This document shows positions 7,395-55,766 of a stretch of DNA of 64,000 bases, one piece after another. A program made the translations under genes and the position numbers. The number at the start of each line of letters is the position of its first letter. The stretch's first letter is position 1. Location: positions 5,069,517 through 5,133,516 of the forward strand of contig OZ245021.1 in assembly GCA_965223775.1 (NCBI GenBank), in the 5' to 3' direction. The notes beneath the pieces are model-generated. The model did no database searches. It was not told the DNA's origin and worked only from the letters and a program-made list of their open reading frames with translations. The DNA is from Gammaproteobacteria bacterium (GTDB taxonomy: Bacteria > Pseudomonadota > Gammaproteobacteria > HK1).

Positions 7395-7633
7395 GCCCGG
7401 AAAAAATCACCGATTTTCTGCTGCGGACGCCAATCTGTCGCTTCGCGCTCCCAAGGTCGCCGCGGTAGCGGGCCGTACTCCCTCAAGCCGCTTCGACAGC
7501 GCGAACGCGCTAGTGTCGGCTACGCCTTCGCCAGCGCGTAAACGCTCTTGCGGTCCGTGCGGCCCGCTACCACGGCATTCTGCTTCGCGGCTTCGCGGCG
7601 CCCTCGCGACGAAAATCGGTGATTTTTCCGGGC
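7395..7633. repeat. Palindromic MITE/REP-like element, copy 1
   Basis: Terminal inverted repeats GCCCGGAAAAAATCACCGATTTTC ... GAAAATCGGTGATTTTTCCGGGC, with an imperfect palindrome throughout. Four related copies occur elsewhere in the window. Confidence 0.85.
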
Positions 7634-13584: not shown

Positions 13585-14311
13585 CTTCCCCTCCAACCTC
13601 GAATCAGTTCTCGATACGGGCCGACGAATCGGCCCGACCGGCAACCGCGCACCCCCGGAGAATCCACGTACATGCGACGACCCGCCTGAGCGCCGCCGGC
13701 TCCGCCTTCGGCTACGACCGCTCCGTGACCGCAAACGTCAACGCGGCGTTCCGCCGCCACGATGCCGAGCGCAGGCGGAGGCACGAACGCCGCGGCGGCG
13801 AGGATAGCACGACGCCGAGGACGGCCCCGTGCCCGGACGCTGCACCGCAAGCAGCTTGTAGTGCGACCGGACCGCCGCCAGGAGGTAGCGTGCGGTCAAG
13901 CACGGCGTCATGAGCCACCACTGGCGCTTCGGCCACATGCCCCCGGTACCGGGTGTGTCGCAGAAGGACGTCGCGAAGATCATCGCATTCGTGCGCAAGC
14001 TACAGCGAGCCAATGGGGTCTGCTGAGCCCCCGCCTTCGCGTTCGAACTTGTCGCCTGCGCCCGTCCGGCTTCCGGTGCATCGCCTGCACTCCTGACTGG
14101 AGACGCCGCTGCGCGAAGTCGTCTCAGAAGATCAATCGAGCTCGAATTCACGGTCGCGTGCGCGATCCTGGTGACGACCGCGACATTGACGACCATCGCT
14201 TCACCGGAGACGGTGATCCGATTCGCGGCGACGCGCCGCACCGTCCCCGGGTGGTGTCGTGTTCTCACGGCTTGATCTTCCGGTAGCTGGAACCCCTACA
14301 TTGAATTCTCG

Positions 14312-16807
14312 TTGCTTGCCTCGGACAGCAGTATGGAGCCGGTAGCCGAAGTACGCGTGACCCCGATTGAACGGGATCCCGTGTGCGGGATGAAGGTCGA
14401 TCCTTCGACGCGAGGACTCTCGCTGGAGCATTCGGGGCGCCGATACCATTTCTGCGCCGAGCCGTGCCGCGCGAAATTCGCCGCGGCACCCTCGAGCTAC
14501 CTCGAGTCCGAAGATCCCGTCTGCGGGATGCGGGTTCACCGCGCCTCGGCAGAGCATTTCTCCTCGTACGCCGGAGAGCGCTACTTCTTCTGTTCAGGAA
14601 GGTGCCGGTCCCGTTTCGAGGCTTCCCCGGGTGAGTATCTCGGTGACCGTGCGGAGCGCAATCCCGCGCCCCCGGGCACCCGCTGCACCCGCTACACCTG
14701 CCCGATGGACCCGGAGATCGTGCGCGACGCTCCGGGGGACTGCCCGATTTGCGGCATGGCGCTCGAGCCCATGGTGCAGTCCCGGGAGGCGGGCCCCAAT
14801 CCGGAGCTCGTGGACTTCAGGCGGCGCCTTTGGATCGGTGCCCCCCTCGGCCTCGCAACGCTGGTCCTCGAAATGGGAGGGCACCTCGGCATCCCCTTTG
14901 CCGAATGGCTTGGACCGCTCCTGCACGTCTGGCTCCAGCTTGTTCTTGCAACCCCGGTTGTCGCCTGGGTGGCGGCTCCATTTTTTCGGCGCGGCTGGAC
15001 GTCGGTCGTTCACCGCCGCCTCAACATGTGGACCCTGATTGCCCTCGGTGCGGGTGCGTCCTATGCATTCAGCGTGGTTGCGGTGCTTGCGCCGGACTTG
15101 TTCCCCGCATCGGTGCGTGGACCCCATGGACTGCCTCCGGTCTACTTCGAAGCCGCAGCGGTGATTCTCCTTCTCGTGCTCGTCGGACAGGTGCTCGAGC
15201 TCTCCGCACGCGAGCGCACGGGCGATGCCATCCGCGCGCTCCTCGATCTCGCGCCGAAGACCGCGCGCCGGATCGGCGACAACCGCTACGAGGACGTGCC
15301 GCTCGAAATGGTCGGGGTCGGCGACCGGCTCCAGGTCCGGCCCGGCGAGAGCGTCCCGGTCGACGGGGTGGTGCTTCGCGGGCGTTCGGCAGTCGACGAG
15401 AGCATGCTCACGGGGGAGGCGATACCCGTCGAAAAGGCACCCGGCGACGCGGTGACTGCAGGCACGCTCAACCGCTCCGGGTTGTTCAGCATGCGTGCCG
15501 AGCGAATCGGGGCGGACACCGTCCTTGCCCGGATCGTCGACCTGGTTGCTACCGCGCAGCGAAGCCGCGCGCCTGTCCAGGGGCTTGTGGACCGTGTTGC
15601 GAGCTGGTTTGTGCCGGCGGTGATCGCGGTGGCGTTGGCCGCGTTCGCCGTCTGGCTGCTCGTCGGCCCCGAGCCCGCTCTCTCCCACGCTCTCCTCGTC
15701 GCGGTCAGCGTCCTCGTCATCGCCTGTCCGTGCGCGCTCGGGCTCGCTACCCCCATGTCGATCATGGTGGCGACAGGACGCGGAGCCCGAGAAGGAGTGC
15801 TGGTTCGCGACGCGGCGGCGCTCGAGAGCCTCGCGCAAGTGGACACGCTGGTCGTCGACAAGACCGGCACCCTGACCGCAGGAACGCCGGAGCTGACTGA
15901 TGTGCTCACCATGGGTGCAGGGATGGGCGAAGGCGAACTGCTTGCCCTTGCCGCCTCGGTCGAACGCGGATCGGAGCACCCGCTTGCGGCGGCGATCGTC
16001 CATGGCGCCGAGGCGCGGGGGATCACCCTGCACGAAGCGACGGACATCGAGGCGGTTCCCGGAAAAGGGATCAGGGGCCGGGTCGCGGGCCGAGATCTCG
16101 CCCTGGGCAATGCGGCGCTCATGCTCGACCTCGGCATCGAGCTCGGGGCCGGGTCGCGCGACGGCGAACGGCTTCAGCGCGCTGGCAAGACGGCAATGTT
16201 CGTCGTCGTGGACGGGGAGCTTCAGGGCATTGTGGCGGCGGCGGATCGGCTACGGCCCACCGCACGCGAAGCGCTGGGGATACTGCGCGAGCTGGGCCTT
16301 GGCGTCGTGATGGCGACCGGTGACAACGTGCTCACGGCGCGCGCGGTCGCCCGGGAGCTCGACATCAACGACTGGCGGGCGGAGACCGGCCCGGAGGACA
16401 AGAGCGATCTGGTCGCCGAGCTCCGGACCGGCGGGCGTCGGATCGCCATGGCGGGCGACGGCATCAACGACGCACCGGCGCTCGCAACGGCCGACGTCGG
16501 GATCGCGATGGGGACCGGCGCGGACGTCGCGGTCGAGAGTGCGGAGATCACGCTCATTGGCGGCGATCTCACTGGAATCGTACGTGCCGTGCGGCTCGCC
16601 CGCGCGGCCTCAGCCAACATCCGCCAGAATCTGCTCTTCGCCTTTGCCTACAATGTGGTCGGAGTCAGCATTGCCGCGGGTGTGCTTTACCCGGCGTTTG
16701 GCCTGCTTCTGTCTCCCATCGTTGCCGCCGCCGCCATGAGCCTTTCGTCCGTGTCGGTCATCGGCAATGCGCTTCGGCTCAGAAGCGCCCGGCTCGGTAG
16801 TCCTTGA
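14312..16807 (+). CDS. copA: Copper-translocating P1B-type ATPase with two N-terminal TRASH/YHS-like metal-binding modules
   Basis: 831 aa with two CGM.V...HFC..C..F modules, the CPC transmembrane motif, phosphorylation site DKTGTLT, GDGINDAPAL and eight TM segments. Confidence 0.9.
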   Translation: MLASDSSMEPVAEVRVTPIERDPVCGMKVDPSTRGLSLEHSGRRYHFCAEPCRAKFAAAPSSYLESEDPVCGMRVHRASAEHFSSYAGERYFFCSGRCRSRFEASPGEYLGDRAERNPAPPGTRCTRYTCPMDPEIVRDAPGDCPICGMALEPMVQSREAGPNPELVDFRRRLWIGAPLGLATLVLEMGGHLGIPFAEWLGPLLHVWLQLVLATPVVAWVAAPFFRRGWTSVVHRRLNMWTLIALGAGASYAFSVVAVLAPDLFPASVRGPHGLPPVYFEAAAVILLLVLVGQVLELSARERTGDAIRALLDLAPKTARRIGDNRYEDVPLEMVGVGDRLQVRPGESVPVDGVVLRGRSAVDESMLTGEAIPVEKAPGDAVTAGTLNRSGLFSMRAERIGADTVLARIVDLVATAQRSRAPVQGLVDRVASWFVPAVIAVALAAFAVWLLVGPEPALSHALLVAVSVLVIACPCALGLATPMSIMVATGRGAREGVLVRDAAALESLAQVDTLVVDKTGTLTAGTPELTDVLTMGAGMGEGELLALAASVERGSEHPLAAAIVHGAEARGITLHEATDIEAVPGKGIRGRVAGRDLALGNAALMLDLGIELGAGSRDGERLQRAGKTAMFVVVDGELQGIVAAADRLRPTAREALGILRELGLGVVMATGDNVLTARAVARELDINDWRAETGPEDKSDLVAELRTGGRRIAMAGDGINDAPALATADVGIAMGTGADVAVESAEITLIGGDLTGIVRAVRLARAASANIRQNLLFAFAYNVVGVSIAAGVLYPAFGLLLSPIVAAAAMSLSSVSVIGNALRLRSARLGSP

Positions 16808-16844
16808 CATTCCAGTTCCCGGAATCCCTGCGCCGACCATCGGA

Positions 16845-16892
16845 AGCAAGATCGAAAGCAAGATCGAAAGCAAGATCGAAAGCAAGATTGGA
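16845..16892. repeat. Four-copy 12-bp tandem repeat (AGCAAGATCGAA) in the copA-cueR intergenic region
   Basis: agcaagatcgaa repeated three times, then agcaagattgga. It lies just upstream of the MerR-family start codon at 16902. Confidence 0.9.
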
Positions 16893-16901
16893 GCGTCCAT
16901 C

Positions 16902-17177
16902 ATGCGAATCGGAGAGATCGCAGAACGAAGTGGCCTTCCGCCAAAGACAATCCGACACTACGAGGACATCGGTCTTATTCGACCGGACCGGACCGAGAAC
17001 GGCTACCGCTGCTTCACGGACGCGGATGTGCACAGGCTCATCTTCCTCGCCCAGGCGCGCGCGCTCGGCTTTTCGCTCGAAGACCGCCGTGCCTTGCTCG
17101 AGCTCCATGGGGATCGTCGGCGTTCGAGTGCCGATTCGCCTTCGTCTCGTCAACGTGGCGAACGCGAGTGTCCGTAA
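16902..17177 (+). CDS. MerR-family (CueR-like) regulator, C-terminally truncated; HTH domain only
   Basis: MRIGEIAERSGLPPKTIRHYEDIGLIRP...GYRCF...ARALGFSLED aligns with the CueR N-terminus. The ORF ends after 91 aa, with no dimerisation helix or Cys metal-binding loop. The stop lies 56 bp from an inserted Uma2 cassette. Confidence 0.6.
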   Translation: MRIGEIAERSGLPPKTIRHYEDIGLIRPDRTENGYRCFTDADVHRLIFLAQARALGFSLEDRRALLELHGDRRRSSADSPSSRQRGERECP

Positions 17178-17232
17178 TCAGGAAGGTCATTCATCACGCC
17201 ATGGGTGTCCCCGATTGCTCACGCTCCCCATC

Positions 17233-18024
17233 TCATCTACTCAACCTCCGCAACTCGGATTCGGTCTCCGGCCGGCCGGGGGTCGCGGAGTACGCCTCGG
17301 CCTCTTCCCGGACACGCGCGCTCAATCGCTGCCGCCGGAGGACGATGCGCGAGACCGCCTCCATCCGCTCCGAGAGGGTGCGGCCGAACCGCACCTTCTC
17401 CACCGCTTCGCACACGTCATCCGGCGTGAGCCCCTCGAGCACCCGCGACGCATCGAGCGTGCGCGGCGGGCTCCCGTCACCGAGGGCAATGAAGTCCACC
17501 CGCAGCTCGTCGGTGCCCTTGCGGCCGTGCAGCCGCCACAGCTCCCGCACCCCCAGGTCGCCATAGCGCTCGATCTTGCCCTCGTCGAAGCTCGTGACCT
17601 CGGTCTCGACCACCAGATCGGGCGCGGTGAGCTCGACGAACGCCACCACCGCCGCGTCTCCTTCGTGACGGGCGGCGTAGTAGCCGCGCGCGCGCTCGCC
17701 GACGTAGAACGCGCAGTCGGGCTCCATCCCCGTGCCGGACGGCTCGCCCGGCCCCCGCAGTCGGGCGGACCGAAGCCCCTTCACCGCATCGGTGACGGCG
17801 CTTCCCGCCGCATCCACGATGCGGTCGACGAGTTCAGTCAGGTCTTCGTGCAGGTGCGAGGGCGCCATCAGGGTGATGATCCCCCGCACCGGGTCGAGGC
17901 AGACCCGACGGAAATGCCGGTTCCAGTCAATTGCCGCAAGCGCGACTACGGTATCGGGATCGGCCCGCAGGACGTGGAGGGTGGAGCCGAGGGGTCCGGT
18001 GTGCATCGTGGCGGGATGGTCCAT
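17233..18024 (-). CDS. Uma2-family (DUF820, PD-(D/E)xK) putative endonuclease, copy A
   Basis: APDLVVETEVTSFDEGKIERYGDLGVRELWRLHGR matches the Uma2 core. An ATG at 18024 is preceded by GGAGG. A near-identical paralogue is at 19534..20316. Confidence 0.7.
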   Translation of the reverse strand: MDHPATMHTGPLGSTLHVLRADPDTVVALAAIDWNRHFRRVCLDPVRGIITLMAPSHLHEDLTELVDRIVDAAGSAVTDAVKGLRSARLRGPGEPSGTGMEPDCAFYVGERARGYYAARHEGDAAVVAFVELTAPDLVVETEVTSFDEGKIERYGDLGVRELWRLHGRKGTDELRVDFIALGDGSPPRTLDASRVLEGLTPDDVCEAVEKVRFGRTLSERMEAVSRIVLRRQRLSARVREEAEAYSATPGRPETESELRRLSR

Positions 18025-18168
18025 GAGATCGAACCTCCAATGTGAACCCACGGGCCGCCCGCCGCGAAGCCGCCCGCGCGAATTCTGCACCCCCCGTCAT
18101 CCGGATGTCCATCGCCCACGCGCTCGACTCGCGCCCGGCGAGCGACCGCTCGCACCGAACCGGGACGA

Positions 18169-18879
18169 TCAGGAGAAGCGCCGCCACAGCAGGGCGCCGC
18201 CGCAAACCGCGGCGGGAATGACGACGAGGGCGGCGAACGGCACGGCCAGCAGCAGCGCCGCCGGGACACCGAATCCGAACGCCGCCGCCCGGTTGGTCCG
18301 GAGCAGCGCGATGGTGTCGCCGAAGTCACGGCCGCGATTCTCCGCCGCGTAGTCGACGAACTGCACGGCCAGCATCCACGCGCCGAACGCGAGCCAGACC
18401 AACGGCGCGGCAACGTTCACGACCGGTATCAGGGTCAGGACGAAGATCCCCGCCAAACGCGGCAGGTGGTAGGCGAGCTTCCGCGCTTCCCGGGAAAGGG
18501 CGCTCACGACGGCCCGTCCCACGTTCTCCTCGCAGTCCGGACCCGTGCCGAATGCTTCGCGCTCGGCGCGGGCGGAGAGCAGGCCGAGGAACGGGCTCGC
18601 CAGCAGCACCGCCAGAAAGCTGAACATCCAGCCGGCGGCGACGATCCCGAAGACGTAGAACAGGGGCGCGAGCACGTATCCGAGCCAATCCAGCCAGCCC
18701 GGCGCCAGCGCTGCGAACCACTCCAGCGCATCGCGCAGCAGGGCGTGTCCGAGAACGAGCAGCAGTGCGATGGCGACGAAGCTGACCGCCACCGGCGCCC
18801 ACACGAAGCGGCGCAGGGGTCTCGCGCGGGCGAGCCCCGCCCCGCGAAGGAAGCAACTCAACCCGACACCGAGTTTCAT
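18169..18879 (-). CDS. cysZ: CysZ-family (EI24/DUF540) membrane protein, putative sulfate transporter
   Basis: Collinear with E. coli CysZ, including PLVWLAFGAWMLAVQFVDY and IPAAVCGGALLW motifs and four or more TM segments. Confidence 0.7.
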   Translation of the reverse strand: MKLGVGLSCFLRGAGLARARPLRRFVWAPVAVSFVAIALLLVLGHALLRDALEWFAALAPGWLDWLGYVLAPLFYVFGIVAAGWMFSFLAVLLASPFLGLLSARAEREAFGTGPDCEENVGRAVVSALSREARKLAYHLPRLAGIFVLTLIPVVNVAAPLVWLAFGAWMLAVQFVDYAAENRGRDFGDTIALLRTNRAAAFGFGVPAALLLAVPFAALVVIPAAVCGGALLWRRFS

Positions 18880-19310
18880 TTCACGAACGGCGTGTCCGCC
18901 TTGCCCGCTCCGGGTCGCTCGCCCTTCACGCGGCGACGACCGAGGCCCACCGCCGCGGGAACGCAAGACGAAGGATCGGGGTGCGGCGGCTCATCCGGCC
19001 GGCCACCGCTCCGGGTCCGGGCGCGGGCGGGGTCCCGACGGATTGCGGCGCGGCAACGACCGGGAACGGAAACGGCGAACCGGTCTGAACGAGAACGTGC
19101 CGGCCGAGAATTCAGGCGCGGGGACTCGAACATGGGCCGTGGCGAGCTCCGCAACGCGAGCCCGGCGCGAACGAAGGCCCGGGGATGAGGCCGAGCCGCG
19201 CCCCATACGGCGCAAGGCCGGCGGAGACGGATGGAGGCTCGGCCGCGAGAGGTCAGCGGAGATACGTGGCGAGGGCAAGGGTCCCTCCGCGGGCTCGGCG
19301 CCTCCCCCTA

Positions 19311-19500
19311 GCCCGCAAATCTCACCAGCTTCCTGCTGCGGACGCCGATCCATGCGCTGTGACAGGCCGTACTCCCTCAAGCCGCTTCGACGTAGTGTCG
19401 GCTACGCCTTCGCCAGCGCGTAAGCGCTCCTTCGGTCCGTGCGGCCTGTCACAGCGCCGTCTCGCCGCCCTCGCGACGAAAGCTGGTGAGATTTCCGGGC
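19311..19500. repeat. Palindromic MITE/REP-like element, copy 2 (shorter variant)
   Basis: TAGCCCGCAAATCTCACCAGC ... GCTGGTGAGATTTCCGGGC termini. The internal sequence is shared with copies 1 and 5. Confidence 0.8.
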
Positions 19501-19533
19501 TAGAGTCGGGCGGCCGGCCGCCCGTCCCCGGCT

Positions 19534-20316
19534 TCACCCGCCGGACGTCGAAGCGGTCTCCGCCCCGCCCGGGGTCGCGGAGTACGACTCGGCCTCCTCG
19601 CGGACGCGCGCGATCAGTCGCTGGCGCTGCAGCACGATCGCCGCCACCGCCGCCGTCCGCTCCGAGCGGGTCTGGCCGAACCGCACCTTCTCCACCGCTT
19701 CGCACACGTCTTCGGGCGTCAACCCTGCGAGCACCCGCGACCTGTCGAGCTTGCGCGGGGGGCTCCCGTCACCGAGGCCGAGGAAGTCCACCCGCAGCTC
19801 GTCGGTGCCCATGCGGCCGTGCAGCCGCCACAGCTCCCGCACCCCCAGGTCGCCATAGCGCTCGATCTTGCCCTCGTCGAAGCTCGTGACCTCGGTCTCG
19901 ACCACCAGATCGGGCGCGGTGCGCTCGACGAATGTCACCACCGCCGCGTCTCCTTCGTGACGGGCGGCGTAGTAGCCCCGCGCGCGCGCGCCGACGTAGA
20001 ACGCGCAGTCGGGCTCCATCCCCGTGCCGGACGGCTCGCCCGGCCCCCGCAGTCGGGTGGACCGAAGCCCCTTCACCGCATCGGCGACGGCGCTTCCCGC
20101 CGCGTCCACGATACTGTCGACGAGCTCAGTCAGGTCTTCGTGCAGGTGCGAGGGCGCCATCAGAGTGATGATCCCCCGCACCGGGTCGAGCCAGACCCGG
20201 CGGAAATGCCGGTTCCAGTCAATCGCCGCAAGCGCGACTACGGTATCGGGATCGGCCCGCAGGACGTGGAGGGTGGAGCCGAGGGGCCCCGTGTGCATCG
20301 TGGCGGGATGGTTCAT
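19534..20316 (-). CDS. Uma2-family putative endonuclease, copy B
   Basis: About 90% amino-acid identity to copy A over roughly 230 aa, with the same RBS and about 100 bp of shared upstream DNA. The 3' ends diverge. Confidence 0.7.
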   Translation of the reverse strand: MNHPATMHTGPLGSTLHVLRADPDTVVALAAIDWNRHFRRVWLDPVRGIITLMAPSHLHEDLTELVDSIVDAAGSAVADAVKGLRSTRLRGPGEPSGTGMEPDCAFYVGARARGYYAARHEGDAAVVTFVERTAPDLVVETEVTSFDEGKIERYGDLGVRELWRLHGRMGTDELRVDFLGLGDGSPPRKLDRSRVLAGLTPEDVCEAVEKVRFGQTRSERTAAVAAIVLQRQRLIARVREEAESYSATPGGAETASTSGG

Positions 20317-20667
20317 GAGATCGAACCTCCAATGTGAACCCACGGGCCGCCCGCCGCGAAACCGCCCGCTCGGATTCTGCGCCCCCCGTCATCCGGATGT
20401 CCATGACCCGCCCGCTCGACGCGCGGGCCGGCCGGCAGCCGCTCGCCGCGCCGTGCCGAGGCCACCCGAATGCGGCGCCAACCTGACCGAGGCGCTTCAC
20501 GCGCTCTACGCTCGCATCGCGCCCGGGGCGGTGCGAAGTTCCGGTTCCATGCGCTTCGCAATTGCTTCATCACCGACGCCGACCCGAGCCCATCGCGAAC
20601 CGGCCCCGTATCGGATGAATGCCTCGGGCCGGGAGGCCAACCTCGGCGAGACGGACGACTCCCCGGT

Positions 20668-21996
20668 TCATGCCGCGTCGTTCCCCACGCGCGTCGCGGC
20701 CGCGCCCAGCCACCGCCCCCGCGTCACCGCGACGGCGAGGCCGAACAGCACGAGCCCGGTACACGCGAACGCCGTCATCTGGAACCGGACGCCCATCCAT
20801 TCGATGAGGGCGCCTCCCGCGAGCAGTCCCAGGGGCAGTCCGTACACCGCAAGCATGCGCGCCCCCATGACCCGCCCCCGGTAGGCCGGCGCGGTGACCA
20901 TCAGCAGGACCGCCGCCATCGAGGTCATCGCGAGGCTCTGCGCGAATCCGACCGCGACCAGCACCGCCATGCCGGAGGTGTGGGAGCCGGTGAAGGCGAG
21001 GACTGCGGTCAGCCCCAGCCACGCGGCCATCCCGACCGCCATCACCGTCGCCGGTGACCGCAGCTTCGCGACCGCCACAACGACCGAACCGAGCAGCGCA
21101 CCGACGGCAAACGCGGCAATGAGCTGCGCCAGGCCGTTCTCGTCCACCCCGTAGACGACCCTTGCGACGACGGGGAGGAAGCCGTTGGTGATCGGATAGG
21201 CGACGAGGTTCGCGAGCAAGGCGAGATAGAGCACGAACCGGATCGTCCCCGACGACCGGATGTACGCGAGTCCCCGGCCGAATTCGGACACGAACCGGGC
21301 CGCGCCCGGCCCGGGCGGCAGATCGATCCGGCCGAGAGGCGGCGGAGAGATCCCGAAACCGATGAGCGTCGCGAAGAAATACAACGCGGCGACTGCCGCA
21401 TAGGCGTGCCCCACCCCGAATGCGGCCATGATCGCGGCTCCGGCCAGGGCCCCGACGATGCGGGGCACGTCCATCGTCAGGCGTGCGAACCCGCTCGCGT
21501 TCATCAGCAGCTTCGCAGGGATGGTGTCCGCGACGAGCGAGGTCCGGAGCATGATGTCGAGCGGCCGCAGGAACCCGCCGAGCGTGGCGATGACGAACGC
21601 ATGCCACGGTTCCAGCCATCCGGAGAGACCAAGCCCCATCGCCGCCGCGGCGATCACCGTGTACGCCGCGCGCATGGAGAGGAGCATGGTGCGCCGGCTC
21701 ACCCGGTCGGCCACCACCCCGAGCCCCGGCGCGAGCAGGGTTCCGCCGAACTGCAGGGCGACGAGCACCGAGAGCAGGAACGGCGAGCCGGTCTGGACGA
21801 GGACATACCAGCCGAGGATCAGGTTCTCCATCTCGAAGCCGGAGGAGGTCGTCACGTCCGACCCACACTGGAAGCGAAAGCTCCGCACGGCGAACGGGGC
21901 GAGCAGTCCGCGGCCCGGGACCCCGCCCCGCCGTCGTGCCGGTCGCGGAGCGGAGGCGGGATCTGCGTCCGGCTTCGGAGTCCGGGGTTTCAGCAC
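20668..21996 (-). CDS. MFS transporter
   Basis: 442 aa with 12 predicted TM segments and MFS-like loop motifs. Confidence 0.75.
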   Translation of the reverse strand: MLKPRTPKPDADPASAPRPARRRGGVPGRGLLAPFAVRSFRFQCGSDVTTSSGFEMENLILGWYVLVQTGSPFLLSVLVALQFGGTLLAPGLGVVADRVSRRTMLLSMRAAYTVIAAAAMGLGLSGWLEPWHAFVIATLGGFLRPLDIMLRTSLVADTIPAKLLMNASGFARLTMDVPRIVGALAGAAIMAAFGVGHAYAAVAALYFFATLIGFGISPPPLGRIDLPPGPGAARFVSEFGRGLAYIRSSGTIRFVLYLALLANLVAYPITNGFLPVVARVVYGVDENGLAQLIAAFAVGALLGSVVVAVAKLRSPATVMAVGMAAWLGLTAVLAFTGSHTSGMAVLVAVGFAQSLAMTSMAAVLLMVTAPAYRGRVMGARMLAVYGLPLGLLAGGALIEWMGVRFQMTAFACTGLVLFGLAVAVTRGRWLGAAATRVGNDAA

Positions 21997-38274: not shown

Positions 38275-38290
38275 GCGATGGGCGCGGCGC

Positions 38291-38520
38291 TAGCGCGGAA
38301 ATCTCACCGACTTTCGTCGCGAGGGCGCCGAGCCGTCGCGTTGACGGGCCGCACGGACAGAAGAAACGCGAGCGCTTCTTTTCGAAAGAGCGCTTGCGCG
38401 CTGGCCGAAGTCGTGGTCGACGCCAGCGCATTCGCGCTGTCGAAGCGGCTTGCGGGAGTACGGTCCGTCAGCGCGAGTGGATCGGTGTGCGCAGCAGAAA
38501 GTTGGTGAGATTTCCACGCT
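38291..38520. repeat. Palindromic MITE/REP-like element, copy 3 (inverted orientation)
   Basis: Its termini are GGAAATCTCACCGAC at the left end and GTTGGTGAGATTTCCACGCTAGC at the right end. The terminal CTAG provides the stop codon of the 38519..39088 gene. Confidence 0.8.
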
Positions 38521-45024: not shown

Positions 45025-45855
45025 TCACCGGCGCCTTTCGTCGAGCCGCGCTCTGAGCGCCGCGAGCTCGACCTCGGCGGCCTCGGCCCGCGACTCCGCA
45101 GCGTCGGCCCGTGACTTCGCAGCACCGGCCCTCGACTCCGCGGCTCCGGCCCTCGACTGCGCAGCGTCAGCCTTCCTCTGCGCAGCGTCGGCCTTCGACT
45201 CCGCAGCGTCGGCTCGTGACTCGGCGGCTTCAGCCCGCGACTCGGCGGCCTCGCGCGCGGCGAGTTGGTCGATACGGCTGAGAAGGCGCTCTCCCGTCGC
45301 CGGGTCGAAGAAGTGCATCTCCTCACCCTTCACCCGGAAGTCGAGATCGAGCGTCTTGCTGCGAAGGAGCAGCATCCCGTCGAGAGACTCCACCACCGGC
45401 TGCGGCACGTACGCGCCCTCCACCAGGCGACGGCCCTTGAGACGCAGCCCGAGGTATTCCCCCGTCGGGTCGTACTGCCAGTACTCCTGCACCCCGAGCC
45501 GCTCGTAGAGCTTCGCCTTCCGCCCGTCGTCCTCGCGCCACGTGCTGACCGACGCGACTTCCATCACGAAGGCGGGCACCACGCCCTCCTCCCACACCTT
45601 GTAGCTCGGGCGTTTGTGGCTGGGAACGCCGAACGCGACGAACACGTCCGGCGCCACCCGGGCGCGTGGATTGCCCTCCTCGTAGTAGATGAAGAGATCC
45701 CCGGACACGTAGACGTCCGGGCGGTCCCGGTAGTGGTGCTGGAGCGCGCTGACCGAATTGATGATCGCGAGGAGCTGCCAGTCATTCTCCGCCATCGGCT
45801 GGCCGTCCCCGCTCGGATACTCAACCGTGGCGGCAGGTCGAACGATTCGACTCAT
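45025..45855 (-). CDS. Uma2-family putative endonuclease (third, divergent paralogue) with a C-terminal (AAESRAD/E)n repeat tail
   Basis: PDVFVAFGVPSHKRPSYKVWEEGVVPAFVMEVASVST...YERLGVQEYWQYDP is a Uma2 core. The RBS GGAGGG precedes the start. Seven-residue repeats are encoded by 21-bp tandem DNA repeats at about 45060-45250. Confidence 0.7.
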   Translation of the reverse strand: MSRIVRPAATVEYPSGDGQPMAENDWQLLAIINSVSALQHHYRDRPDVYVSGDLFIYYEEGNPRARVAPDVFVAFGVPSHKRPSYKVWEEGVVPAFVMEVASVSTWREDDGRKAKLYERLGVQEYWQYDPTGEYLGLRLKGRRLVEGAYVPQPVVESLDGMLLLRSKTLDLDFRVKGEEMHFFDPATGERLLSRIDQLAAREAAESRAEAAESRADAAESKADAAQRKADAAQSRAGAAESRAGAAKSRADAAESRAEAAEVELAALRARLDERRR

Positions 45856-46181: not shown

Positions 46182-49100
46182 TCATTGCTCGGGAGCTAGC
46201 GTGATCCGACGATGCTCCGCCGCAATCATCCGCCAAGGTCCGCCACAGAGAATCCACTTGCCGGCGGTGTGGACCGGGTTTTCAATCGGCAGCACTTCGT
46301 AGCTGCCATTCTCCGTCCGCTCCACGACGTACAGGTACCAGGAATCCGCTGCCTGCCCATCCGACATCTCGAACGCCTTGTGTACCTGGGCACGGCTCAG
46401 CTCCACAACCTCGTCGCCGTCCCACGAACGTCCCCTCCCCTTCACTTCGATCAGGCGTACCGCCCCCGTCTCGGGATCGATACTGCGGAGATCCCAGCCC
46501 TGCTGATGTGGATCGCCGAATTCCGGATTGCGGCCAGACTCCCTTTCGTATTGCGCGGCAACTTTGCGATACACCTCGTCCCCAAGCAGTCCACCAGCGT
46601 CCCGGCCTCCTTCTTCGGCACCACTGGAGTCGTCGCCATCAGTGTCCGGCGCGATCTCCCCCTTCAACGCGTTCTTCAGTTCCTCCGTCTTGCGCTTCTG
46701 CAGGGCAAAGGCTCTGTCTCTGGTGAAGGAGCCACCCATCGAACCCGACTCGCTATGCTCAGGGCTGCCAGAGGTGCCGTCTTGGGTGACACTCGATACG
46801 TCGTCAGCCTGATCCGACCCGTCAAGCTCGGAATCACCGGACACATCCTCTTGTCGCACCGACTCATCCGCGTCCCTCCGCCTTCCCGCGGTGGGTTCGT
46901 CGGCACCCGTGGCCGGGGCGAGATCGCCATCCGGACCGGTTGCTCCCTCAACGCCCGGAGCGCGTTGGAACGTCGTCGGCAACTCGAAATCGGGAGCAAA
47001 GGAGCGCACGAACTTGTCGGCGGCAAGAACGAAATCGTCTGCGGCGTCGATTGATGCCAGCATTGCAGTGAGATCCGCCGACAGGTCGGCGCGCTGGCCG
47101 AAGGAAAGAGACCTCAGAAGTTCCTTGGCCGCGTCCGCGCCGAACTGGATTGGCCGGCCGGCGACGGTCAGGTCGCCCTCGTGCAGGCGCGCGTTCACGG
47201 GTACGTTCTCAGCGGACATGCCTTTGACGCTGATCTTGAGATCGAGCCGTTCGAGGCGGCGAAGACGCCACTCCATCGTCGGCTCGATAACCGCGCCCTC
47301 GTCCTCCTCCAACCTTCCGATACCCTTGACATGCCGGAGTAGTTGGCAGATGAGCTCGAATCGGGGCGTCCAGACGTCTACAGACCGTTCAGTTCCCTCA
47401 CTCCAATCCATCTCGACAATGGCCGACAAGCGCTCCAAACCAAGCTTCTCCGCTGTGCGGAGCCGCTGATCGGGCGAATTGCCCAAGTGGCCGCCGGTGG
47501 CGGTTCGCAACTCGCCTTGCCCGGGAAAGAACCTTCGGTTCTCAATGTCGTCGAAGTAGATTTCTTCCTCGGACGGGCACATCCATTCTCGCCCATCGAA
47601 AACCGCCGCATTGCGAACGACGCCATTCCATCGCTCCGCATGCAAGATGTTGTCGTTCATGTCCTCAAGACAGTATGCATACGCGGTTGGGAGAACGTTG
47701 CGTACTTTATTCGCCAACCCGTCGGGCGAGAATCGGGCGCACGCCCAGACCTTCCGGAGGTAAGCCAGCGCCTGCTCCCCCGTCGTCGTTTCTGAGAACT
47801 GGTACGGGAACGCCGAGTGTTCCCACTCTTCACGCAGCCTTTCGTGGAATCGATCCAAGGGGGCGATCCAGCCACCGAGCGCCCCACGTGACCGGCCCCC
47901 AACTCGCTGAACGATTCGGGCGAATGGGATACGTTCGTTGTCCTCGGACAGGACGACGAGCTCCGGCACGGCCTGCTCGAAACGGAGTTTGTCTTCGTCC
48001 GTTTCAACCTGTTCGCGAACCTCTCGAAGCAGTTCGGCAAGCGCTTCTGGGGGGAGCTGTGACCCCACTCTCAAGAGTCGTTGGAGCGCGGTCGCATCGG
48101 GAATCGCCACGCCGAACCTCACGCCCTCCTGCTCCAGCACGGACATGAGGTCGCCCGAGAGCACCGCGACCGGTGCATCCTCCCGCGCCGGATCGGCCTC
48201 CCGGAGCACGTCTTGCGGGCGCCTGAGCTGGCCGTCGCAGCAGGGCACCCATGCGAGTCGGGACAGTTTGACCGCCCAAGTGCTTGGAAGCTCTCCCCGG
48301 CGGGAATGCGGGTAGCGGTAGAAATACTCGACCCCCCTGCGCCCCTTGCCGCGTAGCTTGCTGAAGCCGTCATCAAGCCATGCGCTGATCGCCGCTCGCA
48401 CCTCGGTGGGCGCGTTCGTATCTGGAAGGGAAGGTTCGATGTCGAAGTCCCGGAGCACGTAGCCGCTATTGTTCGACTCGCTGATCGCCTCGACTTTCAA
48501 TCCCAGAAACTCTGCCGCCTTCCCGCGTTCCCAGCGGTTGACTCTGTCCTCGATCGACCGAACTGCAAGCGTACCTTTGACGCCGGCCGCCTCGAAGAAC
48601 GTGCGCCATTCCTTCGGGTCGGCGGTCTCCGGATCCTCCAGATACGCCGCAGCGATTACGGGCGCATTCGGAAACAGGCATCCTCGGCTCTGGCCGCGTA
48701 CGTAGGGCTCCGCCAGGAGCGCGTCTCCGACCGGGACGCCTCGCCGGCCGCTCGCCGACTCCACGAGCACTCGGATCAGCAGGTCATGGCGCTTTCGATG
48801 TGCGGCCCAGCGGCCGAGTGGAACGAGCGCAGACCACTCCGGCGTTGGCGAGGCGTCCAGCCGGTTCACGGCGGCTTCGACAAGCTCACGAAGACCGATA
48901 CCTCGGGCGCGAGTCTCGATCCATTCCCGGGCCTGCGACAGATGGACCCGTTCCCCGCGCTTCCTCCCGGCACCTTGGCGGAGCGCCCCGCTCCACTCCT
49001 CCGCGAGGCAGCGGTCCTCGCCCGGAATGAATTGCTCCATCAATCTGCGCGTTTCGGGTCCACCCGGCTCACGCTCGGACGGAAGCGGCTCGTTGAAAAA

Positions 49101-50600
49101 CACCGATTCATCGACCGATCGCCACGCCCCGCCCGCCGTTCGGATGCAAGGGAGACTGGCCGTCGACCAAGCGTTTCCCGAGGCAAGCTCGGAGATGACG
49201 CCCCAAATGCGGAATAGCAAGTCACGGCGCGTCGATTCCTCGTCTTCGAGTTTCTCCCACCAACTTTCGAGCCCGCCGGCCCAAGCGTGTTCCAGGTCGC
49301 CAGACGACATCTCGGAGAGAAGGCCAGCCTGATCCAGTAACTCGTACCCACCCTCTCCGAGCACCCGATCGACGAGCACAGGGCCTCTCAGGAGCGCCGC
49401 CGGCCGAAGGGTGGGCTGCTCCTCGAACGCTTCCGCGAATGGCACGGGCGGAACGATCGCTTCCCTCGGCTTCGCGAATCCCAAGGCGCCGGTTCCCTCG
49501 GTCCACACGGGGATCACCGAAGCGTTCTCAAGCAGATCCTTCAGACGGGACAGCCAGCGTTCTTCGGCGAGGATCGCTTCGAGGCCGCCAGCCTCTTGCG
49601 AAGGCGCTGCGAGCACCGCGAAAGCCGCCTTGGCCGCATCGGGCTCCGAGAACGTGCGGGCCGCCCAACCGAGGACGCTCGCCAGCACGTCTGCAATTCG
49701 ATCCATGATGTCTCGTTGCCACGGATCGTCCTCTATCTCTCCGAGCCCCGTACGCGAGATGTTCAACAACCAGTCCGCGTTAACATGAACTCCAAGGGGA
49801 AGCATCACCTCCGTGGGCAACGTGGCGTAAATCCGGCCTTTCTGTGGGGGCACGGGCAGCCCTCGGTCATCCAAGGGCAGTATCCCGAGCACGCGACGCG
49901 CCCGGGCCGCTACGGCGTACACCAGCTCGCGCTCCTCCTTGGTGGGCTGAATCTTCCGATACTCGAGAAATCGTCGAATCGCCGCCCGCGAAGGCTTGAA
50001 CTCCACGGGAAAGAGCTGCCAACGCCGTTCCTCGCCGTCAGAACGAGCTATTGCCGTCATGCTTCCGTGGACTACCCCGTCGTCAACGCTCAGCGTCCAG
50101 ACCTGCCCGCCCGCGTCGAGGCGCTCCAGATTCGATGCCGCCAGGACCGCGAGGAGCGTGGGATCGTCGTCGGACAGAAGACGAGCCAGATCGGATTGAA
50201 GGTCCGTAGCGGGGTCGAAGCGCTTACACAGTTCGAACCGGGTAGTGAATCCCGCTTCCGGCTCCGCAATCCCATCGTCCCAGATTGGCAGGACCGCCCC
50301 CAGCGGCTCGATCTGAACGTCGCCGTATTCCTCGCCGACGACCTGGGACATTTCGTAGCGGAACGTCCAGTCCCACCCGGAGACCCGAGCTTCTCGGAAC
50401 CGCCCGAAGACACTCTTGAAGCCGATTCCCATGAATCCGACGGAGGCGGCGCCCTTGGTCGATCGGAAGACCTTCGACAGTCCCTCGACATCCTTCTTTT
50501 CGATCGGATTCTGTCCGTCGTGCTGAAAGATCAAGTTATCGCCATCGTCCGAGAGCCGGAACGCGATGGAACGGGCGCCGGCATCCAGCGCGTTCTGCAC
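46182..50600 (-). CDS. Large NOV/sacsin-like protein: an N-terminal GHKL (Hsp90-like) ATPase motif and a C-terminal DUF3883 (predicted restriction-endonuclease-like) domain
   Basis: 1472-aa ORF. The N-terminus carries ELVQNALDAGA, a sacsin/GHKL N-box-like motif. The C-terminus carries GWDLRSIDPETGAVRLIEVKGRG...WYLYVVER, a DUF3883 signature. The locus is visibly lower in GC than its flanks. The start is uncertain: the frame stays open for 57 codons upstream with no ATG, GTG or TTG, then an in-frame TAG, then a GTG with a perfect RBS. Confidence 0.75.
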   Translation of the reverse strand: MQNALDAGARSIAFRLSDDGDNLIFQHDGQNPIEKKDVEGLSKVFRSTKGAASVGFMGIGFKSVFGRFREARVSGWDWTFRYEMSQVVGEEYGDVQIEPLGAVLPIWDDGIAEPEAGFTTRFELCKRFDPATDLQSDLARLLSDDDPTLLAVLAASNLERLDAGGQVWTLSVDDGVVHGSMTAIARSDGEERRWQLFPVEFKPSRAAIRRFLEYRKIQPTKEERELVYAVAARARRVLGILPLDDRGLPVPPQKGRIYATLPTEVMLPLGVHVNADWLLNISRTGLGEIEDDPWQRDIMDRIADVLASVLGWAARTFSEPDAAKAAFAVLAAPSQEAGGLEAILAEERWLSRLKDLLENASVIPVWTEGTGALGFAKPREAIVPPVPFAEAFEEQPTLRPAALLRGPVLVDRVLGEGGYELLDQAGLLSEMSSGDLEHAWAGGLESWWEKLEDEESTRRDLLFRIWGVISELASGNAWSTASLPCIRTAGGAWRSVDESVFFNEPLPSEREPGGPETRRLMEQFIPGEDRCLAEEWSGALRQGAGRKRGERVHLSQAREWIETRARGIGLRELVEAAVNRLDASPTPEWSALVPLGRWAAHRKRHDLLIRVLVESASGRRGVPVGDALLAEPYVRGQSRGCLFPNAPVIAAAYLEDPETADPKEWRTFFEAAGVKGTLAVRSIEDRVNRWERGKAAEFLGLKVEAISESNNSGYVLRDFDIEPSLPDTNAPTEVRAAISAWLDDGFSKLRGKGRRGVEYFYRYPHSRRGELPSTWAVKLSRLAWVPCCDGQLRRPQDVLREADPAREDAPVAVLSGDLMSVLEQEGVRFGVAIPDATALQRLLRVGSQLPPEALAELLREVREQVETDEDKLRFEQAVPELVVLSEDNERIPFARIVQRVGGRSRGALGGWIAPLDRFHERLREEWEHSAFPYQFSETTTGEQALAYLRKVWACARFSPDGLANKVRNVLPTAYAYCLEDMNDNILHAERWNGVVRNAAVFDGREWMCPSEEEIYFDDIENRRFFPGQGELRTATGGHLGNSPDQRLRTAEKLGLERLSAIVEMDWSEGTERSVDVWTPRFELICQLLRHVKGIGRLEEDEGAVIEPTMEWRLRRLERLDLKISVKGMSAENVPVNARLHEGDLTVAGRPIQFGADAAKELLRSLSFGQRADLSADLTAMLASIDAADDFVLAADKFVRSFAPDFELPTTFQRAPGVEGATGPDGDLAPATGADEPTAGRRRDADESVRQEDVSGDSELDGSDQADDVSSVTQDGTSGSPEHSESGSMGGSFTRDRAFALQKRKTEELKNALKGEIAPDTDGDDSSGAEEGGRDAGGLLGDEVYRKVAAQYERESGRNPEFGDPHQQGWDLRSIDPETGAVRLIEVKGRGRSWDGDEVVELSRAQVHKAFEMSDGQAADSWYLYVVERTENGSYEVLPIENPVHTAGKWILCGGPWRMIAAEHRRITLAPEQ

Positions 50601-55516: not shown

Positions 55517-55766
55517 CCCCGGAAAAATCACCGATTTCCTGGCTAGCGGACGCCAATCTGTCGCTTCGCGCTCCCAAGGTCGCCGCGGTAGCGGGCCGTA
55601 CTTCCTCAAGCCGCTTCGACAGCGCGAACGCGCCGGTGGCGGCTACGCCTTCAGCCAGCGCGCAAGCGCTCTTTCGGTCCGCGAAGCTGCGTAAGCAGAT
55701 GCGGCCCGCTACCACGGCATTCTGCTTCGCAGCTTCGCGGTGCCCTCGCGACGAAAATCGGTGATT
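55514..55766. repeat. Palindromic MITE/REP-like element, copy 5
   Basis: About 90% identical to copy 1 over about 250 bp, with the same terminal inverted repeats. Confidence 0.85.

Follow-up and report, generated by a model that had tools for sequence, protein, structure and literature searches.

Two adjacent Uma2-like genes, probably members of a gene-converted local array, beside a cueR gene probably cut when a separate copA fragment was inserted

The 64-kb stretch of DNA analysed here (the window) carries two copies, A and B, of an Uma2-like gene close to a truncated cueR gene. The two genes are probably members of a local array of lineage-expanded, stand-alone genes for predicted Uma2-like nucleases and not an inserted cassette. 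They are likely to have been homogenised by gene conversion, and cueR to have been cut by the separate insertion of a copA fragment. This corrects the causal story drawn from the initial annotation, in which the arrival of an Uma2 cassette next to cueR would account for its truncation: the copper regulator would not have been broken by the nuclease gene, but the copA fragment would have arrived already broken beside a long-resident gene.

Both copies are intact genes on the minus strand. Copy A (17233..18024) encodes 263 amino acids with the TT1808/DUF820 fold and is regarded as the positional counterpart of the copy that follows cysZ in related genomes, because the cysZ context is shared. Copy B (19534..20316, 260 amino acids) is intact and keeps all residues that are invariant in the family. 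Comparison of the window with itself gave a direct repeat of 894 bp (17262-18153 against 19554-20446) with 92.2% identity and three gaps. The repeat covers about 130 bp upstream of each ATG and nearly the whole coding sequence, and the similarity ends about 10 codons short of the stop codon. The proteins are 89.5% identical across 256 amino acids and are the only members of their subfamily in the window. The duplication, the protein identity of about 90% and the diverging 3' ends that had been described earlier are all borne out by these figures. The ribosome-binding site said to be shared by the copies is also present, but with a spacing of nine nucleotides (GGAGG-N9-ATG) and not seven. Copy A is, as had been noted, close to the truncated cueR, with 55 bp between the cueR stop (17177) and its own (17233).

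Two metagenome assemblies made independently match the window with 99.5-99.9% identity and have the same arrangement, fully in L001 and for the A side in L002. Since these assemblies agree and the copies differ at 8% of positions, the repeat is not an assembly artefact. An expanded or mis-joined repeat would have to account for 67 differing positions, three indels and the unique genes between the copies, and this explanation has next to no probability. The exact protein of copy A has no record in public assemblies, and a 99% variant (P0001) stood in for it in that look-up.

The gene order in related genomes indicates which parts of the locus are old. Six loci in five genome lineages (L004, L079, L080, L082 and L083/L084, the last two counted as one because the same protein and gene order were obtained from two samples) have the Uma2-like gene, here designated U, at the same syntenic position. 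The locus common to the relatives is gltBD-MFS-[cysZ]-U...Sel1-LOG-ABC with one to three U copies. The layout is MFS-cysZ-U-(Phd/PIN)-Sel1 with one copy in L083/L084 and MFS-cysZ-U-U-U in L082; L004 has a tandem pair of U, L079 three copies with cysZ remnants upstream of one of them, and L080 one copy. In relatives, the variable slot beside the gene is occupied by TA, DUF4143 ATPase and methylase genes. Neither copA nor cueR is present at the syntenic locus in any of the five lineages. The relatives had been proposed as a place to look for an intact cueR at this position, and none of the five has a cueR there. The ancestral layout was probably gltB-gltD-MFS-cysZ-U-[variable slot]-Sel1-LOG-ABC-GST. 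Local segmental duplication, together with unequal recombination, would have changed the number of U copies in it, which is one to three among the related genomes.

The cysZ gene (sulfate transporter, 18169..18879, minus strand, 236 amino acids) lies intact between copies A and B, as had been described, with an NCBIfam CysZ equivalog match of 193 bits; its coordinates were mapped from the gene call in L001, and the open reading frame in the window is 18169..18966. It is ancestral at the locus and directly follows the MFS gene in the closer relatives L082 and L083. Next to it is a decayed relic of an MFS transporter gene (18972..19116, minus strand), corresponding to codons about 60-108. The relic has 76% nucleotide identity, and 59% amino acid identity over 49 amino acids, to the window's own MFS gene (20668..21996, minus strand), which by synteny belongs to the conserved left flank gltB-gltD-MFS, and 78-82% identity to the MFS genes of L004, L080, L082 and L083. 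The relic is evidence of an old segmental duplication. Flank homologies such as that of 19202-19302 to the spacer between the first and second U of L082 show that the history was more tangled than one simple event.

The copA gene (14333..16807, plus strand), encoding a P-type copper ATPase with YHS/HMBD metal-binding domains, is intact according to Pfam and to the gene call in L001. The following cueR (16902..17177, plus strand) has only 91 codons. It matched TIGR02044 with 85.1 bits against a cutoff of 147.4, over model positions 1-80 of 127, and is therefore not a full-length member. Its homologues have 128-147 amino acids, and in the alignment the C-terminal approximately 50 residues are absent from the window gene. 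Both the partial match and the longer homologues agree with the earlier description of a truncated MerR/CueR-like regulator. Compared with the CueR-CopA copper efflux module, the locus has an intact copA, MerR-type operator-like dyads (TTCC-N7-GGAA) upstream of copA and of the truncated cueR, and 76-79 N-terminal residues that are typical of CueR. It differs in that cueR ends at model position 80, without the dimerisation helix and the cysteine pair of the metal-binding loop.

These genes are part of a segment (13817..17232, plus strand) that fills the variable slot from copy A to the promoter of the Sel1 gene; it is absent from the slot in the relatives and homologous to L081. It consists of the 122-bp 3' fragment of a cytochrome c gene (13905..14026, plus strand; 91% identical to the cytochrome c 3' end at L081 4001-4122), copA and the 5' part of cueR. 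L081 has an intact copA and an intact cueR of 147 amino acids, in a different context on another contig. Positions 14271-17128 of the window are 92.3% identical to L081 7409-10227, the same identity as for copA, and the DNA homology stops inside cueR at 17128. The segment thus has a broken gene at each end. Because the L081 homology ends inside cueR and a cytochrome c fragment is found at the other end, the truncation is placed at the breakpoint of an acquired fragment. A fragment of about 3.4 kb with the tail of cytochrome c, copA and the first approximately 76 codons of cueR would have entered the slot downstream of copy A by illegitimate recombination, and cueR would therefore have been truncated; the fragment may be of foreign origin or derive from another part of the same genome. 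The right edge of the slot, where the sequence is conserved again, is at about 13811-13816 in L004, L080, L082 and L083, while the match in L079 starts only from 13568. An att-like site at this edge was considered and rejected; no integration site is claimed, because the conserved block near 13816 resembles the promoter and leader region of the Sel1 gene itself.

It is very improbable that an Uma2 unit of about 1 kb is instead a selfish, mobile or addiction-like cassette, copied to two nearby sites with one insertion truncating cueR. The relatives hold U at the site without copA or cueR, which makes the copA-cueR segment the newcomer, and the breakpoint in cueR coincides with the end of homology of a fragment that is broken at its other end as well. 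The 894-bp repeat has neither terminal repeats nor a target-site duplication, and its 3' boundary is inside the coding sequence. Clustering of the flanking open reading frames at about 73 loci of the family gave no conserved partner gene, the largest cluster being found at seven loci that are all syntenic orthologues, and no transposase or integrase conserved beside the copies. No relatives of A and B were found on viral contigs, plasmids or phages, and neither protein matched PHROGs. The cognate methyltransferase gene expected of a restriction-modification system does not adjoin A or B in the window, and only in L080 was a methyltransferase found, about 7 kb away.

The search gave 1769 homologues, the best 120 of which are all more than 72% identical, and the subfamily forms 443 clusters at 50% identity. 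Some properties of the family would fit a mobile cassette. Related genomes have at least 14, at least 12 and at least 11 copies each, often in local same-strand clusters, and each of the two units in the window has its own promoter-like site. Members occur in two phyla, in uncultured high-GC Gammaproteobacteria as well as in Vicinamibacterales, and the amino acid identity of 70-77% between the phyla implies that the family was at some point transferred horizontally. Uma2 genes have been noted near mobile elements in gamma-proteobacteria (PMC3424549). However, for 75 of 85 copies the closest match of the N-terminal part is in another genome. Because the nearest relative is mostly found in another genome, the paralogues appear to be old and stable and not the result of a recent burst. 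Of the proliferating selfish or addiction-like modules suggested by the initial annotation, the multi-copy nature of the family stands, but a mobile or addiction-module nature is not supported.

Within the local array, the divergence between A and B is mosaic. The copies are 96% identical in nucleotides 1-540 and only 77% identical in nucleotides 661-770. The synonymous divergence (dS) is 0.081 for codons 1-180 and 0.333 for codons 181-256 (Fisher p=0.0006), and dN/dS is about 0.38. In nucleotides 661-770, copy B is nearer to copies in L082 and L079 (80-81% identity) than to copy A. The tandem pair of L004 has a similar mosaic, with 98% identity followed by 78%. A and B are probably old paralogues in which gene conversion later homogenised the promoter and leader of about 130 bp and the first approximately 540 nucleotides of the coding sequence, the 3' part retaining the old divergence. 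The divergence of the MFS relic from its parent matches this old level. The downstream flanks of A, B and the copies of the relatives had no convincing homology.

A single recent duplication of 894 bp without gene conversion, in which the 3' divergence results from relaxed selection on the C-terminus, is unlikely. A and B are mutual best matches overall, the length of the C-terminal tail varies across the family, and the steeper 3' divergence could partly be due to a weaker constraint on the C-terminal helices. Against this, the synonymous divergence rises as well and is four times higher in the 3' part, copy B is in that part closer to the copies in L082 and L079 than to A, the MFS relic associated with the copies has already diverged by 24%, and the independent L004 pair has the same kind of mosaic. 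Old paralogues with later conversion resemble tandem paralogue arrays under concerted evolution, in which adjacent same-strand genes share a homogenised tract but have diverged for longer in the rest of their sequence. The difference is that homogenisation is exceptional in this family, where most paralogues are stable and have orthologues elsewhere.

The homogenised tract includes the leaders. The leader of copy A (18025..18153, minus strand) has a sigma-70-like site TGGACA-18-CAGAAT (18111..18082) and the GGAGG ribosome-binding site, and that of copy B (20317..20446, minus strand) has its promoter-like site at 20403..20374; both leaders were delimited by the repeat boundary. A promoter scan of 4 kb gave two sites, one per copy, against 0.3 expected, and it is inferred that A and B are each transcribed from their own sigma-70-type promoter. 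The same motif was found upstream of 28 of 100 family copies (24 distinct leaders listed), and other family copies have entirely different leaders.

That each copy is a toxin with a non-protein antitoxin, for example an RNA in the leader of about 130 bp (a type I/III-like addiction module), is highly improbable. The conservation of promoter and leader in about a quarter of the copies across genomes and the failure to find a protein partner would agree with such a module, and DUF820 genes have been described as TA-associated in Synechocystis (PMC4963859). However, the leaders had no Rfam match, their folding energy was no better than that of shuffled sequence (z -0.4 and -1.1), and the fold of the leader alignment had three predicted pairs with no covariation or compensatory changes. 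These results rule out a conserved RNA element in the leader, and the entirely different leaders of other copies also speak against a module.

The Uma2 identity of the copies rests on Pfam and on a fold model, both of which agree with the PD-(D/E)xK assignment made earlier. The Pfam Uma2 model (PF05685, cutoff 27) matched copy A above threshold with 29.6 bits (E 5.6e-7, residues 46-167), while copy B had 23.5 bits and is placed in the family because it is 89.5% identical to A and not by its score. Most of the best 120 homologues have a precomputed PF05685 match. The AF2 model built with a diverse alignment (A4) had a pLDDT of 89.8 and the TT1808-type restriction-endonuclease-like fold; a model from close homologues alone (A2) was unusable (pLDDT 50). 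A search of PDB sequences with the family profile gave only chance-level matches. In an alignment of 22 sequences down to 30% identity, E101, D103 and H59 are invariant, D136, E140 and K150 are nearly so, and E60 is also among the conserved residues. In the model, the conserved residues lie where beta2 begins, on beta3 and in the helix that comes after it, and they are candidate catalytic residues. Each copy probably encodes a PD-(D/E)xK nuclease that depends on Mg and acts on DNA, with a possible role in recombination or in protecting the cell from foreign DNA. To our knowledge no function has been established for the Uma2 family, although it has thousands of members and several of its crystal structures are solved, and nuclease activity is, as far as we know, unproven for the family as a whole.

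The subfamily resembles Uma2/DUF820/TT1808 proteins (PF05685; 1wdj, 3ot2, 6okh, 9y1l) in having acidic residues and a lysine at the expected elements, in being encoded by stand-alone genes and in its large lineage-specific expansions, which have been reported for Uma2 in cyanobacteria (PMC9403480). It differs in being at the edge of the Pfam model, in its length of about 250-260 amino acids against about 150-190 in the solved structures, with an N-terminal addition of about 45 residues (modelled as two beta-hairpins) and a C-terminal helical extension of about 60 residues, and in not being cyanobacterial. The PADLOC profile of the phage-defence candidate PDC-S17, also a single-gene predicted nuclease, gave weak, partial matches over the nuclease core (E 1.5e-7 and 3e-8). 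PDC systems (Payne et al., bioRxiv 10.1101/2024.01.29.577857) are candidates that were picked because they lie within BREX, DISARM or type I RM systems, whereas A and B are not part of such a system and no known defence system adjoins them. A literature search on Uma2 in sponge symbionts gave nothing usable.

The analysis documents a subfamily of Uma2-like proteins that is divergent but well conserved, has a confident fold assignment and is hardly detected by Pfam. Being tight and highly expressed-looking, with a clear promoter and conserved predicted catalytic residues, it would be a reasonable experimental entry point to Uma2. Apart from the subfamily, the locus is a variable one whose changes are of an ordinary kind. 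As a speculative and unlikely extension, the proteins of about 260 amino acids may form an undescribed nuclease arsenal of many paralogues, shared horizontally between unrelated uncultured high-GC Gammaproteobacteria and Vicinamibacterales that are possibly co-resident symbionts. Conversion would keep the catalytic N-terminal two-thirds uniform, and the C-terminal beta/helical part would diversify as a target-recognition module. If so, the arrangement would generate diversity for the defence of the cell against foreign DNA. Breaks made by the nuclease may, in addition, turn the adjacent slot into an insertion hot spot.

Two further features of the window had been connected with the duplication. 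The gene at 45025..45855 (minus strand) had been counted as a third Uma2 gene in the same proliferation. It is a classical Uma2 gene (Pfam Uma2, 62 bits) with an Ala/Glu-rich C-terminal repeat, but it is a member of another subfamily, without significant similarity to either copy (tblastn against A, E=3.6), and is unrelated to the duplication of A and B. The palindromic element reported beside copy B was confirmed as a 191-bp MITE-like element (19309..19499) with terminal inverted repeats of about 23 bp, about 30 bp from the end of the gene. L001, with 99.5% identity on either side of the element, lacks it, and related copies are found elsewhere in the window; the element downstream of B is recently inserted.

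The region, compared with itself, contains a single strong direct repeat of 894 bp, in which positions 17262-18153 and 19554-20446 are 92.2% identical with three small gaps. The repeat belongs to two neighbouring Uma2-like genes on the minus strand, both intact open reading frames: copy A (17233..18024, 263 amino acids) and copy B (19534..20316, 260 amino acids). The proteins are 89.5% identical across 256 residues, and in both genes the ATG lies nine bases 3' of a GGAGG. The repeated stretch extends from about 130 bp upstream of the ATG to about 10 codons ahead of the stop, where the similarity fades. No additional copy of this subfamily was found elsewhere in the 64-kb window. The same layout is present in two independent metagenome assemblies, L001 and L002, which are 99.5-99.9% identical to the window; an assembly artefact is thereby ruled out as the source of the duplication, and the gene pair described in the initial annotation is real. 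The cysZ gene between the copies was also found, as was the palindromic element beside copy B, about 30 bp away.

A comparison with five relatives that have a syntenic locus shows that it lies between two conserved blocks, gltB-gltD-MFS and Sel1-LOG-ABC-GST-TauD. The locus is arranged most simply in L083/L084 (the same protein and gene order from two samples), as MFS-cysZ-U-(Phd/PIN toxin-antitoxin)-Sel1, where U is a copy of the family. In L082 the order is MFS-cysZ-U-U-U, with DUF8371 and DUF4143 genes next; in L004 two U copies lie in tandem, 16 bp apart, and L080 has one copy. L079 has three copies with other genes between them and cysZ remnants directly upstream of one copy. A family copy is therefore resident at the locus across the clade and the cysZ-U arrangement is old; by its common cysZ context, copy A corresponds to the relatives' copy after cysZ. 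Neither copA nor cueR was found at the syntenic locus in any of L004, L079, L080, L082 and L083/L084.

Between the last U and the promoter of the Sel1 gene there is a variable slot, the cargo of which differs between lineages. For L004, L080, L082 and L083, four of the five relatives compared, the conserved sequence restarts at window positions 13811-13816; L079 matches only from 13568. The cargo in the slot and after gltD in the relatives (L083 10927-11936; L082 12109-17094; L080 1451-3840 and 8233-9387) includes a Phd/PIN toxin-antitoxin pair, DUF8371, DUF4143/AAA_14 and an N6_N4 methyltransferase. The locus is an ordinary variable locus that behaves as an insertion hot spot.

In the window the slot carries copA and a CueR-like gene that ends 55 bp from copy A and, in line with the initial annotation, is truncated: it matches TIGR02044 at positions 1-80 of 127 only, while its homologues have 128-147 amino acids and carry the Cys loop usual at the C-terminus. 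The closest homologue, at 85% identity, is found on the separate contig L081 in a context unlike that of the window, consisting of cytochrome c, DsbC, a DDE transposase, CopC, CopA and an intact CueR. Through copA and into cueR, window 14271-17128 shares 92.3% identity with L081; inside cueR the homology ends at 17128, about codon 76. The other end of the acquired copA segment is marked by an orphan 3' fragment of a cytochrome c gene (13905-14026), which matches the final 122 bp of its L081 counterpart at 91% identity. Because the homology with L081 breaks in cueR and in cytochrome c, the slot holds a fragment of about 3.4 kb with a broken gene at each end, and the truncation of cueR is the acquired fragment's own breakpoint. 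The proposal that a Uma2 cassette had been inserted beside cueR has the causality wrong, since the relatives carry U at the locus without copA or cueR; the Uma2 gene was already there before the copA segment, and its insertion is rejected as the cause of the truncation. L001 and L002, which are nearly identical strains, have the truncated cueR too. Unless the genome has a second cueR elsewhere, the truncation would leave copA without its activator. Two MerR/CueR-type operator-like dyads (TTCC-N7-GGAA within CTTGA...) are found upstream of copA (14271-14305) and of the truncated cueR (16803-16835). Between the stop codon of copA and the start of the truncated cueR, a 12-bp unit (ATCGAAAGCAAG) is repeated four times (16839-16886); L081 has it once at the homologous site.

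The divergence between copies A and B is uneven. dS rises from 0.081 in codons 1-180 to 0.333 in codons 181-256 (Fisher p=0.0006), and within the latter the final 36 codons have 0.52. Over nucleotides 1-540 the copies are 96% identical, compared with at most 94% for the best other copy from relatives, while over nucleotides 661-770 they are only 77% identical and B is 80-81% identical to copies of L082 and L079. The tandem pair of L004 has the same mosaic, with 98% identity in the first 330 nucleotides and then 78%. Between B and cysZ there is a decayed MFS relic of 145 bp (18972-19116, codons ~60-108), 76% identical to the intact MFS gene (20668-21996) 2.5 kb away, which is left by an old segmental duplication. 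Immediately downstream of B, the stretch 19202-19302 has homology to the spacer between the first two U copies of L082. Taken together, these observations indicate that the array underwent segmental duplication and rearrangement locally, long ago, and that gene conversion later made the leaders and the first two-thirds (5') of A and B alike. The overall dN/dS is about 0.38, and both genes remain under purifying selection.

With the Pfam model Uma2/DUF820 (threshold 27 bits) copy A scores just above (29.6) and copy B just below (23.5) the threshold; neither an NCBIfam model nor a match in a PDB sequence search was found. Structure prediction with close homologues alone was unusable (pLDDT 50). 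When cluster representatives at 50% identity were searched exhaustively, full-length relatives of 30-50% identity were obtained, and the model built from their alignment is confident (pLDDT 89.8, pTM 0.84). In this alignment H59, E101 and D103 do not vary even in sequences of only 30% identity, and D136, E140 and K150 hardly vary; going by the secondary structure of the model, the conserved residues fall at the beginning of beta2, on beta3 and on the helix after beta3. All family-invariant residues are kept in both A and B. Each gene is predicted to encode a metal-dependent nuclease of Uma2 type. Compared with solved proteins of the TT1808/DUF820/Uma2 family (1wdj and 3ot2; PMC3424549), the subfamily has about 45 additional N-terminal residues and a C-terminal helical extension of about 60. 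The Uma2 fold and the multi-copy nature of the family, both proposed earlier, are borne out by Pfam and the structure model and by genome counts, respectively. The genes are a divergent subfamily of the known, functionally uncharacterised Uma2 family, which PMC9403480, PMC3424549 and PMC4963859 describe only as a predicted endonuclease. One representative, P0222, has 558 amino acids and matches the query twice in full; in some genome two tandem copies have evidently been joined in a single reading frame.

A word-indexed search gave 1769 homologues, of which the best 120 are all more than 72% identical, and 212 stretches encode relatives when one genome per species is counted. Three long-read chromosomes of uncultured Gammaproteobacteria have at least 14, 12 and 11 copies. 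At about a quarter of the loci, 2-4 copies are grouped within a few kb, nearly always in one orientation. When N-terminal parts were compared, 75 of 85 copies had their nearest counterpart in a different genome and not in their own, so that most of the expansion is old and stable rather than a recent burst. No conserved neighbour gene was found when flanking ORFs were clustered, nor any relatives in viral contigs, plasmids or phage genomes. The reading of the genes as a cassette or addiction module is rejected. Lineage-specific expansions of Uma2 are described in cyanobacteria (PMC9403480) and mobile-element contexts in gamma-proteobacteria (PMC3424549). Chromosomes of Vicinamibacterales (Acidobacteriota; L028, L031, L032, L049, L061, L063, L067, L071, L073 and L075-L078) have multiple copies of the ~250-amino-acid subfamily with 70-77% amino acid identity to the best gammaproteobacterial copy, which implies that the gene has at some point been passed from one phylum to the other.

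Only two sigma-70-like sites (TGGACA-18-CAGAAT) were found in 16700-20700 by consensus scan, at the equivalent position upstream of A and B, compared with 0.3 expected from shuffles, and each copy may be transcribed independently. A conserved promoter-like TGGACA-N17-19-CAGA(A/C)T motif 60-130 bp upstream is found in about 28 of 100 family copies from various genomes (the window, L004, L005, L006, L010, L012, L014, L019, L035, L046 and others), followed by a leader of 47-66 nucleotides containing GGCGG..CGGCCC. Other copies have a leader of another kind, in which a perfect hairpin (GGGTGTCC...GGGACACCC) directly adjoins the start codon. An RNA structure received no support from covariation.

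PADLOC gave a weak match of A and B to PDC-S17, one of 145 candidates picked for being embedded in known defence systems (bioRxiv 10.1101/2024.01.29.577857). Because of this match and the variable neighbourhood, with its toxin-antitoxin genes, DUF4143 ATPases and the methyltransferase of L080, the most likely guess would be a role against foreign DNA.

The classical Uma2 gene at 45025-45855 adjoins a 1472-amino-acid ORF (46182-50600). At its C-terminal end the Uma2 protein carries an Ala/Glu-rich heptad-like repeat (AESRA[D/E]A...), which causes spurious tail-fibre and LmuB hits. A MITE-like element of 191 bp with terminal inverted repeats of about 23 bp (TAGCCCGCAAATCTCACCAGCTT...) is present at 19309-19499, with relatives at 38290-38513 and, partial, at 7471-7564 and 55594-55681. 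The element has moved recently, since it is precisely missing in L001, where the sequence to either side is 99.5% identical and the empty site reads CCTCCCCC-CTC-GAGTCGGG.
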